Virus record (IMG/VR): IMGVR_UViG_2534682338_000009
Coordinates: 1-12,048 of that record
Length of the DNA: 12,048 nucleotides
Origin: a virus
Lineage: Duplodnaviria; Heunggongvirae; Uroviricota; Caudoviricetes
Strand: one strand, 5' to 3'
Shown: piece by piece, positions 8,538-11,097 of the stretch
How the letters are laid out: each line of letters starts with the position of its first letter
Position numbering within the stretch: the first letter of the stretch is position 1
Notes under the pieces: generated by a model
Database searches by the model: none
What the model was told of the DNA's origin: nothing
The model's input: only the letters and a program-made list of their open reading frames with translations
Made by a program: the position numbers and the translations under genes

Positions 8538-8915
8538 TTACAGGTTATCTATTAAATTACAGTTGGTGAAAGTCATATATATCGCATTATCAGTAATACC
8601 GATCATATATACAGGTTTTTTCTCGTATTCATATATATAAATGTAGTCGGGGGTATTTACGCCCATGGCAAACAATCTACCATTGACTTGCTTTAGTGGT
8701 TTGTATGTTACCGATTCAGTGCCAAAGTTACTTGACACATTTCTATTATCGATACTTATATACCCCGATTGATTGAATGAATCGAGGGGGATGTTACGCT
8801 TACCTACTTCCTTAAACATATATACATCGCACCGATATAGTCCGTCGTTAGCAAGTTCTACATTTGCCAGTACAGAAGGGACGATGAATATTAGAGCCAG
8901 TACTATTTTTTTCAT
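8538..8915 (-). CDS. Hypothetical secreted (periplasmic) protein with cleavable signal peptide
   Basis: 125-aa ORF with ATG start. N-terminus MKKIVLALIFIVPSVLA followed by NVELAN fits a Sec signal peptide with an AxA-type cleavage site. Two Cys (in YRCD and TNCN) could form a disulfide. No family recognised. Confidence 0.6.
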   Translation of the reverse strand: MKKIVLALIFIVPSVLANVELANDGLYRCDVYMFKEVGKRNIPLDSFNQSGYISIDNRNVSSNFGTESVTYKPLKQVNGRLFAMGVNTPDYIYIYEYEKKPVYMIGITDNAIYMTFTNCNLIDNL

Positions 8916-9234
8916 TGTGACTTATTCCAGTTAGTTACTGTGAGGAATTAATTGTTGAGACTCTTTTTGAAACTGCAATACTTCATCAATGGATTTTTTA
9001 TCGGTACGCATTAAGAATCATATAGTACACCAACTACTATGGCAACTATGAAAATTATAAATTATCCCGATATAGTTGGTTGGTTTCGAGAACTCAAATT
9101 CAGTACCGCAATTATTTGGACAATCAATTACCCTAGATACGTTTTTATGTGTGCCTTATGCTCAATATAGCTATGAATCTTTATAAGGCGATCTACAGCA
9201 ATGAGACAACCACCTGTAAAGGTGCTTCTTTGTT

Positions 9235-9498
9235 TTATGGTTTTGGCTTGCGTAATTTCTTTGTTTTCGCTGCTTTAGTGATTAAATCAGTATATTTCTT
9301 GATACTCTTCTGTAGTTTCTCGTCTTCTGATAGTTCCTCTACAACGTCCTGTACGCCCCTTAGAATGCGTTCTACTTCTTCGGCGTCGCGTTGTACGTCT
9401 TCATGTACTCCATACTCTACGTAGCGTCTTAGGGCTTCAATATTGGGGATACTATAGCTTGCTACAACTCCATCAGTATGATGAATGTGTAGGTCCAA
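9235..9498 (-). CDS. Hypothetical small charged protein (87 aa, putative TTG start, basic C-terminal tail)
   Basis: ORF has no in-frame ATG; the only start is TTG at 9496-9498, preceded by GGTGG. The protein is helical and charged with a KKLRKPKP tail, and its codon usage resembles the head genes (GTA, CTA, GAA, CGC rich). The overlapping plus-strand ORF (9149-9424) translates to Ser/Thr/Cys-rich low-complexity sequence typical of the antisense of acidic coding DNA. Confidence 0.35.
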   Translation of the reverse strand: MDLHIHHTDGVVASYSIPNIEALRRYVEYGVHEDVQRDAEEVERILRGVQDVVEELSEDEKLQKSIKKYTDLITKAAKTKKLRKPKP

Positions 9499-10006
9499 GC
9501 CACCGTTGATATATGCAGTTGAAAACTTTTGGCATATAATTACCTATATAGAAAGCAAAAAAGAAATAAGTTATTAAAGTCCACACTGACCATTTTGAAA
9601 AAAGTGACTTTGATTTTTCTTGGAAAGTTTTTTTAAGACAACTATTTAGTAAGAATATTGATACAAATAAAATCAAGTTTATGATAAAGAATTTCCACTC
9701 CATCAATATATCACCCAATATTAGCATAGGAGCCATCATTCCAGTACTAATTACAGTAATATTATGAAATAAAGTATTCGAACTTCTATATGCATTTCTT
9801 AACAATATAAAAACTGCAATTATTATAATTGCATTCTGTACAAGGGTTAATACTAACGAATTGAAATCAATCCATATTAAACTTATGGGATATCCATAAT
9901 AAACAGAGTTACCGAGTTTATAAAATACATATGTCGCATATGACATAAATGTGATCAATGTTATTATTGATATGTTACTTTCTAGTTTGTATGGGCTATT
10001 TCGCAT
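9473..10006 (-). CDS. Hypothetical polytopic inner-membrane protein (about 5 predicted TM helices)
   Basis: 177-aa ORF with ATG at 10004-10006. Hydrophobic segments ISIITLITFMSYATYVF, LVLTLVQNAIIIIAVFILL, VISTGMMAPMLILGDILM, FFIINLILFVSIFLL and WSVWTLITYFFFAFYIG. Very AT-rich gene. No family recognised. Confidence 0.6.
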   Translation of the reverse strand: MRNSPYKLESNISIITLITFMSYATYVFYKLGNSVYYGYPISLIWIDFNSLVLTLVQNAIIIIAVFILLRNAYRSSNTLFHNITVISTGMMAPMLILGDILMEWKFFIINLILFVSIFLLNSCLKKTFQEKSKSLFSKWSVWTLITYFFFAFYIGNYMPKVFNCIYQRWLGPTHSSY

Positions 10007-10092
10007 CTAATATATCTCTAAACAATTAACTCTAGATTATTTTAATTCCATACTAATACACTATATATCAACATATGATACTCAAACAATTT

Positions 10093-10118
10093 GTTCCCCT
10101 TAACCAACAAAGGGGAAC
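10093..10118 (-). terminator. Stable hairpin (9-bp GC-rich stem GTTCCCCTT/AAGGGGAAC, 8-nt loop) between lipoprotein and membrane-protein genes
   Basis: Stem pairing verified base by base in the sequence. Only weak U-tracts follow on either strand, so it could be a terminator/attenuator or an mRNA-stabilising structure. Confidence 0.3.
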
Positions 10119-10131
10119 GAATAATTTACAC

Positions 10132-10809
10132 TTAAAATTCTTTTCTTGAATCGAATCCACTTACAATTGTGTAGTCTATAAGAGAATTATTTGCCTCGTT
10201 AATTCGAATTTTAGCACCTTTATAAGCGACAACTTTTGTTCCTTCAGAAAGGTCAAAAGTAAAATCTGTTGTATATGCAGATCTCGCCATATTATTAGAG
10301 AATTCACGATATGTGAATTTTAATGTGTTGCCTGACTTTCCATTATACTCTATCGTCTTTACAAATGAATCACTAACCATACATAATCCATTTGGTACAT
10401 ACTGTATTGAAATTTCACTCGAATTGTATGTTGTACCATTAGGCGGTGATATTGTATTTTTTGCTTTATCATATGTTACATAGTTTACTGAGTTAACAAC
10501 TACTCCATATAAGTTCTTAAGCCCAACTGAATTCTTATCAATCGGATTTGCATAAACATTGTTTCCGGTATGGCAGTATGTCCCTTCTTTAATTTCTGAT
10601 AGTGATCCTGACGCGTTACCAAGTTTAAGCAATTCAGTTTTATATCCAGTAGCTGACCTTATAATGGGATCCCCCATGTATGCTTTGTTAGTTGTACCAA
10701 CCATTGGTTCTACATATTCTTGAGTTGTGACTTTTGGAGCAACACTACCCGGAGCACAGCCAGATAATAATGTGGCACCTAAAACAATCAGAGGTATATT
10801 ATTTTTCAT
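10132..10809 (-). CDS. Hypothetical lipoprotein (signal peptidase II lipobox LLSGC; Ala at +2 suggests outer-membrane sorting)
   Basis: 225-aa ORF with ATG at 10807-10809 and AAGGAA 9 nt upstream. N-terminus MKNNIPLIVLGATLLSGCAPGS has a canonical lipobox with Cys18. Mature part is Asn/Tyr/Thr-rich and likely beta-rich. No family recognised. Confidence 0.7.
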   Translation of the reverse strand: MKNNIPLIVLGATLLSGCAPGSVAPKVTTQEYVEPMVGTTNKAYMGDPIIRSATGYKTELLKLGNASGSLSEIKEGTYCHTGNNVYANPIDKNSVGLKNLYGVVVNSVNYVTYDKAKNTISPPNGTTYNSSEISIQYVPNGLCMVSDSFVKTIEYNGKSGNTLKFTYREFSNNMARSAYTTDFTFDLSEGTKVVAYKGAKIRINEANNSLIDYTIVSGFDSRKEF

Positions 10810-10852
10810 GCGTTACTATTCCTTATGTGTGTAGCACTAAAGTTAAAATCTT

Positions 10853-10884
10853 ATCATACCAGATAAAGAATGTTAATAGTTCAA
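10853..10884 (-). promoter_or_regulatory. Candidate sigma70 promoter for the lipoprotein operon (extended -10 TGgTATGAT; weak -35 TTGAAC at 20-bp spacing)
   Basis: Reverse complement of 10853-10861 is TGGTATGAT; TTGAAC on the minus strand at 10879-10884. Spacing is suboptimal, so this is low confidence. Confidence 0.25.
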
Positions 10885-10929
10885 TAGGTTATTGCTCTTT
10901 CCTTTCCTGTTCTCCTTTTTTAGTACATA

Positions 10930-11097
10930 TTAGAATTTCGCATGAGGTACATGAAAATCAATAGGGATTACTTTACTTTCTCCCACTGGCGGCGTATCAC
11001 TTAATGGCGAGTGTTTAGGGCCGTTATAGAGTCCGTCACTGCGGACTCCCTGATTCTTTATATGTTTACGTAGTGTTGACCATTTAATATTTTTCAT
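10930..11097 (-). CDS. Hypothetical small protein (55 aa), not in the supplied ORF track
   Basis: ATG at 11095-11097 with AAGGAA ending ~7 nt upstream and TAA stop at 10930-10932. Translation is MKNIKWSTLRKHIKNQGVRSDGLYNGPKHSPLSDTPPVGESKVIPIDFHVPHAKF. Contains an internal 7-bp stem palindrome (11029-11048). No family recognised. Confidence 0.3.
   Translation of the reverse strand: MKNIKWSTLRKHIKNQGVRSDGLYNGPKHSPLSDTPPVGESKVIPIDFHVPHAKF

Follow-up and report, generated by a model that had tools for sequence, protein, structure and literature searches.

An eroded accessory hotspot near the terminase genes of a temperate phage and the solitary lipoprotein gene retained in it

Several accessory genes of temperate phages whose products act at the cell envelope have been described. 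In phage lambda, bor encodes an outer-membrane lipoprotein of about 97 amino acids (aa) and lies between the lysis genes and the cohesive-end site (cos). Cor (phi80, N15, and HK022) and Llp (T5) are superinfection-exclusion lipoproteins of about 60–80 aa which are specific for FhuA, the receptor of their own phages. In P2-like phages, the cos-proximal interval between gpA and gpQ is a defence hotspot (Rousset et al., 2022; PMC9122126). This work deals with a group of five small co-oriented open reading frames (ORFs) located at positions 8538–11097 of the caudoviral record IMGVR_UViG_2534682338_000009, of which the first 12,048 nucleotides (nt) were analyzed (hereafter, the window). An earlier note on this DNA had presented the five ORFs as a candidate for a novel multi-component system directed to the envelope. 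The analysis presented here leads to a different conclusion: the interval is an eroded accessory hotspot and belongs to ordinary prophage biology. It holds one intact and seemingly autonomous lipoprotein gene, one intact but orphan gene for a secreted protein, and at least four gene remnants. Probably, it is the terminase-proximal accessory hotspot of a temperate phage with a serine recombinase and a lambda-type (GpA/Nu1) terminase, inserted beside msyB in Escherichia, and a mosaic of independently acquired envelope genes, mostly decayed in this copy, rather than a single system.

The five minus-strand ORFs are present where the earlier note had placed them (Table 1). When they and their intact versions in two related prophage loci, L006 and L019, were scanned against Pfam, PHROGs, PADLOC (the defence models of PADLOC-DB v2), and NCBIfam, only PHROG 1353 and noise were obtained, in agreement with the initial impression that no lysis, structural, or known defence family is represented. 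In particular, neither holin, endolysin, or spanin homology nor tail or structural homology was detected in Pfam and PHROGs, the full-length L006 versions included. The idea that the five genes form one cassette did not survive a presence/absence matrix built across more than 50 loci. The five-ORF set was seen only in near-identical copies, the block shared with L006 retains more genes than the window, and the sole combination that recurs outside near-identical blocks is that of the lipoprotein and the membrane protein.

The central part of the interval is explained by comparison with L006, where the order of genes is intact: lipoprotein, 232-aa membrane protein, 112-aa ORF, 128-aa gene, 125-aa secreted protein, 153-aa lipoprotein, 73-aa gene, 127-aa gene, and terS. 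The window aligns from 11204 to 9509 with L006 9606–11301 (99.5% DNA identity) and from 9517 to 8524 with L006 12225–13218 (97% DNA identity). Since these two aligned segments overlap by 9 base pairs (bp), about 920 bp must have been deleted at a 9-bp microhomology. The lost segment comprises the 3′ end of the membrane-protein gene, the whole 112-aa ORF, and the first part of the 128-aa gene. The deletion fused and inactivated the membrane-protein gene and the next-but-one downstream 128-aa gene, and an identical junction is carried by L019.

The earlier note had described a protein with about five transmembrane (TM) segments. Its polytopic nature was borne out, as the hydropathy and the loop charges fit five TM segments with the N-terminus inside, but the ORF turned out to be a truncated copy. 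All 19 clusters related to it are 232 aa long, obvious fragments excepted. Homology to this family covers residues 1–166, and the last 11 of the 177 residues are read out of frame from another gene. What is missing is a C-terminal domain of about 75 aa, with two invariant cysteines (C186 and C221) in the relatives, which is predicted to be periplasmic because of the five TM segments and the internal N-terminus. The ORF has a GC content of 27%, and the ratio of non-synonymous to synonymous substitution rates (dN/dS) among family members is 0.10–0.24. AlphaFold2 (AF2) gave a low-confidence model of the 232-aa protein (predicted local distance difference test score, pLDDT, 44), and tblastn found no match to it in the phage collection and none in plasmids. 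The 87-aa charged protein, for its part, had to be abandoned as a gene: it is the tail of the broken 128-aa gene and begins at a fortuitous TTG inside the fused membrane-protein ORF. Gene callers leave it uncalled in about 20 related loci, and it has no family match in Pfam, PHROGs, PADLOC, or NCBIfam.

Related loci consist of a prophage inserted beside msyB (mdoGH–yceK–msyB). The left arm of the prophage, from the 158-aa gene through the OLD gene and with the deletion included (window 6007–12048), is 100% identical in L010, L015, and L018; in the hosts that share it, the mdoGH flanks are just 85–90% identical, and the adjoining terS and terL genes are 86–93% identical. The identity of the arm beside such divergent flanks indicates that it has spread between species, or recombined, recently. 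Because the arm that spread in this way bears the deletion, the truncated membrane protein is dispensable.

The rest of the interval has suffered similar losses. The signal-peptide protein of the earlier note stands as an intact product of 125 aa. Its Sec signal peptide is typical (MKK followed by a hydrophobic core and VLA/NV), and its dN/dS is 0.15–0.32. Only two homologous clusters were found among 5.8 billion proteins, in addition to a 39%-identical copy in L019; Pfam, PHROGs, PADLOC, and NCBIfam gave no match, and neither did tblastn of the phage collection. In L006, the gene of a 153-aa lipoprotein overlaps the stop codon of the 125-aa gene (TAATG) and is translationally coupled to it, and the same pair is found in L019 (39% identity for the 125-aa protein and 42% for the lipoprotein). 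In the window, homology to L006 stops at 8524, where an AT-rich spacer toward the OLD gene starts. The 125-aa protein is an orphan here, with only five codons left of its coupled lipoprotein gene at the start of the OLD cassette. Another scar lies in the seemingly non-coding 320 bp between the 87-aa and 125-aa ORFs. There, tblastn with a 126-aa lipoprotein that is intact in L019 gave a match in two frames (E = 2e-15), and the region has 73% DNA identity to L019 12371–12549. Neither this fragment nor the five-codon stub figured in the earlier note. Of a trio of lipoprotein, secreted protein, and lipoprotein, only the middle gene is left intact; the first survives as a pseudogene fragment and the third as a stub.

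The 55-aa peptide fares no better as a member of the cluster. Its Shine-Dalgarno site, its start codon, and its first 35 codons fall within a 137-bp indel (10993–11129) that L026 and L005 lack, the sequences on either side being directly joined there, and the ORF is kept only in near-identical blocks. As its start lies inside an indel missing elsewhere, it is probably not a conserved gene.

The position of the interval, described previously as a moron-type location by the terminase genes with envelope-directed products, is in accordance with the variation in cargo among related prophages. The adjoining OLD nuclease, recognized by the earlier note and well supported by PADLOC (Table 1), belongs to the cargo that differs between them. 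With respect to L019, the differing segment corresponds to window 6007–9335 and contains the OLD and 125-aa genes here and seven other genes in L019; homology resumes in the 142 bp upstream of terS (5865–6006), which are conserved where the cargo differs. In the relatives, the slot between the lipoprotein/membrane-protein genes and terS is occupied by OLD, by other lipoproteins, by an 8xMP protein, by a pair with a Tlde1 domain, or by a GTPase with DUF2971.

The 225-aa lipoprotein gene is the sole clearly functional and widely conserved gene of the interval. The canonical lipobox reported in the earlier note was verified: the sequence MKNNIPLIVLGATLLSG-C18 (LLSG-C18) fits the [LVI][ASTVI][GAS]C criterion for Lgt/LspA substrates, and its cysteine is near-invariant (at least 90%) in two alignments of relatives (n = 30 and n = 45). 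According to the Lol sorting rule, lipoproteins without Asp at position +2 are destined for the outer membrane. This protein has Ala at +2 and no Asp retention signal, so the outer membrane is its predicted destination. The match to the PHROG 1353 hidden Markov model (HMM) covers nearly its entire length (E = 1.8e-66, 225 bits, residues 2–220 on profile positions 2–227 of 230). A profile search retrieved 3,420 clusters at 50% identity with E ≤ 1e-3, of which 2,512 have E ≤ 1e-10; nearly all are full-length (about 215–240 aa), and the names of the cluster members give neither taxonomy nor function. No annotated lipoprotein family was found in a Pfam scan of 45 diverse remote relatives (E ≤ 0.01), and the window protein itself matches nothing in Pfam, Bor and TraT families included, at E ≤ 0.1. 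The conserved features of the family are the lipobox cysteine and the C-terminal motif IEYNGKSGNTLKFTYREF ... YKGA ... N..I.Y, the N-terminal half being variable. The dN/dS is 0.07–0.14, and the AF2 model is a confident all-beta structure with two beta domains (pLDDT 86), for which no convincing structural neighbor was found; profile searches of PDB sequences gave signal-peptide-level noise only. Judging from the dN/dS, the size of the family, and the confidence of the model, this is a real protein under constraint.

With regard to its expression signals, a sigma-70-like promoter candidate (TTAACA-17 nt-TAAGAT, with TG) lies inside the block that travels with the lipoprotein gene, in a region where the number of promoter-like sites is not above chance. 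Terminator-like sites number four, versus 1.3 expected. The block shared with L005 stops at 10104, inside the hairpin that follows the lipoprotein gene.

Outside this phage family, the lipoprotein gene is found in very different contexts. In about 40 loci of P2-like phages, it is solitary and invariably located some 710 bp beyond gpA; in those of the Fels-2 type and of Klebsiella, the homologue occupies the conserved edge of the gpA–gpQ hotspot. The gap that separates it from gpQ in P2-like phages varies from 452 to 3,575 bp; 22 gap lengths were sampled, with largely unrelated cargo. Eight of the ten cargo proteins tested from this gap match PADLOC models, namely AbiU (including STM2723.1 of Fels-2), bSEFIR, AbiLi, retron RT II-A, PDC-S49, PDC-M55C/HEC-05, and PD-Lambda-3_B. 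In IncFIB SSU5-like phage-plasmids, it is the lone opposite-strand gene between the replication and the partition/TacAT genes, and in an Acinetobacter phage it adjoins a DUF4258/XRE toxin-antitoxin pair. It is also present in E. coli islands rich in insertion sequences (ISs), together with type I restriction-modification, DUF262, and DprA/RecQ genes. Further homologues reside in a mobilizable island of Brenneria (L037), which also encodes a Tlde1-domain (PF10908) protein at 15339–15860, and at chromosomal sites in Methylotuvimicrobium and Pseudidiomarina. The solitary gene is carried by at least four unrelated lineages of temperate phages, and these distributions indicate that it is an autonomous unit that moves alone between them.

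Data on the expression of a family member are available for Fels-2. In this phage (L001 4385–5669), STM2728, DinI/tum, and the lipoprotein homologue STM2726 are located, in this order, downstream of a perfect LexA box, TACTGTAAATATAAACAGT. The mutagen MX induced the predicted operon STM2726–STM2727–STM2728 between 2.6- and 14.8-fold, with three of the three genes being significant (PMC2225428). Apart from this microarray entry, the literature search found no functional study of STM2726 or of the lipoprotein family.

On these grounds, a working model can be put forward. The lipoprotein would leave the cytoplasm through Sec, receive its lipid at Cys18, and be carried by Lol to the outer membrane, in keeping with Ala at +2. 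The C-terminal beta domain, which is conserved (IEYNGKSGNTLKFTYREF...YKGA), and the variable N-terminal domain would act in the periplasm or at the outer membrane of the lysogen or of the induced cell. The role that we favor, tentatively, is exclusion or protection: the protein may hinder the entry of superinfecting phages independently of the receptor of the phage that carries it. This preference is based on the unrelated tails and receptors of the carriers, on the defence and toxin-antitoxin neighbors, and on the damage induction in Fels-2. In a broader form, which we regard as more doubtful still, the PHROG 1353 lipoprotein would be the founder of a large undescribed class of phage-borne envelope proteins involved in receptor-independent exclusion or in cell-wall protection; such proteins could, for instance, stop genome entry at a step in the periplasm or inhibit the peptidoglycan hydrolases that come in.

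Several points weigh against an exclusion role. Searches of PADLOC, Pfam, NCBIfam, PDB, and BFVD gave no homologue from which a function of the lipoprotein could be deduced, and its vicinity to defence genes amounts to guilt by association. In P2-like phages, the gene behaves as a conserved flank of the hotspot and not as variable cargo. Most family members are metagenomic and some are found in plain chromosomal contexts (L035 and L036), so the ancestral role may be unrelated to phages. The search of the window for a LexA box gave none, and the SOS regulation of the Fels-2 type need not hold for this gene; its promoter-like sites, as mentioned above, are at chance level. Finally, the gene co-travels with that of the 232-aa membrane protein in a block of about 94% identity, and a functional pair of the two genes may exist.

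The closest competitor of the exclusion role, less probable than it and yet not negligible, is that the lipoprotein serves in lysogenic conversion as a fitness or virulence factor, in the manner of lambda Bor or of the plasmid protein TraT (through serum resistance, adhesion, or a more robust envelope), with no anti-phage activity. A stand-alone outer-membrane lipoprotein in a moron-type slot certainly recalls bor, the carriers include prophages of the pathogens Klebsiella, Salmonella, and Acinetobacter, and the big family outside phages points to a general envelope role. However, the protein shows no similarity to the Bor or TraT models, its gene is repeatedly found beside defence and toxin-antitoxin genes, and the induction by DNA damage that it shares with the tum operon in Fels-2 fits a role in prophage induction better than constitutive conversion.

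It is rather unlikely that the lipoprotein and the full-length 232-aa membrane protein constitute a two-gene trans-envelope pair, with a TraT/TraS or spanin-like layout, a crippled form of which would be present in the window. The genes of the two lie next to each other, as a block of about 94% identity, in five lineages (that of the window, L006, L026–30 with the same arrangement in L042, L041, and L088/89) and in the E. coli island L004, the membrane-protein gene of L041 being frameshifted. Furthermore, the predicted periplasmic cysteine-bearing domain of the membrane protein would share the compartment of the lipoprotein. Nevertheless, each gene also occurs alone. The membrane protein, which is essentially confined to a fixed position in the serine-recombinase phage family, is found without the lipoprotein in L031, L038 (a small chromosomal islet), L090, and L091; the lipoprotein lacks this partner in the P2-like loci, the phage-plasmids, the Acinetobacter phages, the islands, and L035–37. 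The slot upstream of the 232-aa gene contains the lipoprotein in L026–30 and L088/89, an HNH-like 242-aa protein in L091, a Tlde1-domain protein with a 91-aa partner in L031, and nothing in L090, so that the presence of the lipoprotein is polymorphic (absent in L090, L091, and L031). A terminator hairpin separates the two genes, the truncated allele of the membrane protein spread horizontally beside a 100% conserved lipoprotein, and neither protein matches TraT or spanin models.

A function in lysis or egress (holin, spanin, or release factor), for the cluster or for the lipoprotein, is very improbable. Lysis cassettes are often found just upstream of terS, as in the lambda order S-R-Rz-bor, and P2-like phages already have a complete lysis cassette elsewhere. 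The location upstream of the terminase genes matches the lambda arrangement, a membrane protein with an outer-membrane lipoprotein recalls spanins, and the Fels-2 homologue is SOS-induced. On the other hand, Pfam and PHROGs gave no endolysin, holin, or spanin match even with the full-length versions, a 225-aa protein of two beta domains is unlike the short proline-rich o-spanins, the P2-like carriers hold their own lysis cassette, and a lineage that continues to spread carries the membrane gene in truncated form. Least credible of all is the original proposal of one superinfection-exclusion or abortive-infection cassette: the ORFs are indeed co-oriented, adjacent, envelope-directed, and without known-family matches, and the phages of the window and of L006, whose TerL proteins are just 43% identical, share 3.6 kb at 97–99.5% identity, the 55-aa ORF and the 125-aa gene being the limits of this block. 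Against it, one deletion left two of the five ORFs as fragments, the L006 version of the block has genes that the window misses, the components are found apart in other loci, and the 125-aa protein pairs naturally with another lipoprotein, absent here.

Table 1. Location of the features discussed in the text, listed in minus-strand reading order of the window; the last row refers to the coordinates of other loci.
Feature	Position	Strand	Remarks
158-aa gene	11572–12048		
Intergenic region with 14-bp x 2.5 repeat	~11100–11570		~470 bp
55-aa ORF, doubtful significance	10930–11097	(-)	Good Shine-Dalgarno site
Sigma-70-like promoter candidate	10848–10876	(-)	~40 nt upstream of lipoprotein start
Intact 225-aa lipoprotein gene (PHROG 1353 family), predicted outer membrane	10132–10809	(-)	
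Intrinsic-terminator-like hairpin	10093–10118	(-)	9-bp stem, 5 GC pairs; 14 nt after lipoprotein stop
177-aa ORF, 3′-truncated copy of 232-aa, 5-TM inner-membrane protein	9473–10006	(-)	
Deletion junction	9509–9517		9-bp microhomology in both parental sequences; ~920 bp of L006 (about 11302–12224) missing
87-aa ORF, 3′ remnant (C-terminal 87 codons) of 128-aa gene	9235–9498	(-)	Gene intact in L006 (12121–12507)
Pseudogene fragment of 126-aa lipoprotein gene	9069–9217	(-)	Codons 71–122; frameshift and in-frame stop
Intact 125-aa secreted orphan protein	8538–8915	(-)	Sec signal peptide, two Cys
Stub of 153-aa lipoprotein gene	8524–8538	(-)	Five codons (MKKTI)
Perfect heptamer tandem repeat TACTCAT x 9.3	8262–8326		Between convergent 125-aa and OLD genes
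Stand-alone OLD-family nuclease	6315–8135	(+)	Pfam AAA_15 and OLD-like_TOPRIM; PADLOC Old E = 1.4e-74
terS, terL (GpA type), 173-aa gene, portal, protease-capsid fusion	1–5864		
8xMP copies in related prophages	L026 9118–9801; L041 4279–4974; L088 2582–3346; L090 5849–6601		

The window is 100% identical to scaffold GL871841.1 of assembly GCA_000190855.1 (L034), and also to L023. In the related prophages, a large serine recombinase (577–620 aa) at the end is followed by small genes, the cluster, the terminase, the portal, the capsid, and a tailspike with an S74 domain. The mdoGH flank of the copy present in the window has 100% identity to E. coli; E. fergusonii had been considered as the host of this copy and was dropped for this reason. 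The whole interval was found in none of 5,426 complete RefSeq genomes of E. coli. The accessory interval has a GC content of 0.30–0.37 versus 0.38–0.44 in the structural genes, and Rfam and tRNA scans of the window found no RNA genes. The capsid gene (the protease-capsid fusion, ORF 166–1602) is broken at about position 190 by an element of the IS256 family, of which the N-terminus of the transposase, MDEKQLQALANELAKNL..., is followed by a scaffold gap in L034 (window 1–190; L034 12834–14304). Because of this insertion in the capsid gene, the prophage copy of the window is defective. A sequence with 99–100% identity to positions 92–190 of the window recurs in numerous Stx phages; its annotation in phage Nil2 is that of an IS285-like insertion mobilized passively.

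The repeats in the vicinity of the cluster deserve some comments. The earlier note placed a cos-like region upstream of the five ORFs. A perfect direct repeat of 14 bp x 2.5, GACTTTGGATAATT, does exist at 11184–11218, with inverted repeats nearby, and nothing marks it as cos. For a terminase of the GpA/Nu1 type, cos is expected just upstream of terS. As this expectation matches the 142 bp conserved at 5865–6006, cos is more likely to be located there than at the repeats of ~11100–11570. The TACTCAT repeat is hypervariable, with 0 to 11 copies among otherwise near-identical prophages, and has no obvious regulatory position.

Other genes of the hotspot were observed in related prophages. The 8xMP protein (PF24838, "octameric membrane protein"), of about 230–250 aa, is convergent just downstream of the 232-aa gene (Table 1); a literature search on 8xMP yielded unrelated papers only. 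The slot of L031 (7079–7859) contains a Tlde1-domain (PF10908) protein and a 91-aa putative immunity gene; Tlde1-domain proteins are related to toxins that target peptidoglycan. A family of proteins of about 127 aa (31–32% identity) is encoded directly upstream of terS in L006 (13973–14356), L019 (14358–14744), and L026 (10441–10821). This gene is absent in the lineage of the window, in which the OLD cassette takes its place.

The type of moron/defence hotspot described here is already known in prophages, and the lipoprotein family was already catalogued by PHROGs. The interval nonetheless illustrates cleanly that a row of small ORFs with the same orientation, next to a defence gene, can consist of scars left by deletions and need not be a system. 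The lipoprotein family, in turn, offers an experimental lead: proteins of about 225 aa with thousands of members and neither annotation nor structural analogue, which recur at defence hotspots of P2-like phages, in phage-plasmids, and in other prophages of Klebsiella, Salmonella, Acinetobacter, and Escherichia. If these lipoproteins did exclude phages, this would matter for phage therapy against the hosts that carry them and for the catalogues of defence systems from which they are now missing.

Among the systems described, lambda bor resembles the lipoprotein gene of the window in being a single lipoprotein gene with a promoter-like site (at chance-level count here) and a terminator hairpin, situated between modules by the packaging genes, with a GC content below that of its neighbors and with presence or absence among relatives. 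In contrast, the proteins share no sequence or Pfam similarity, and that of the window is more than twice as long (225 aa), is built from two beta domains, and is a member of a much larger family that lacks annotation. The gpA–gpQ "TO region" of P2-like phages (old, tin) is likewise a slot of variable cargo by the packaging genes that can hold an OLD nuclease, and the same lipoprotein family stands at its edge in Fels-2-type and Klebsiella P2-like phages; the phage of the window, however, has a different backbone (serine recombinase, lambda-type GpA terminase, and S74 tailspike), and its cargo consists mostly of small uncharacterized envelope proteins instead of recognized defence systems. The F-plasmid TraT/TraS also combines an outer-membrane lipoprotein (about 225–245 aa) with a small polytopic inner-membrane protein encoded beside it, but there is no TraT Pfam match in the window, the gene order is reversed, and the two genes are separable, with a terminator between them and a truncated membrane partner. 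Cor and Llp are, as the lipoprotein of the window is predicted to be, phage-encoded, solitary, accessory outer-membrane lipoproteins, and they exemplify the mode of action proposed for it; the difference is that exclusion is here a proposal, for a family matched by PHROG 1353 only and distributed among phages with unrelated tail and receptor types.

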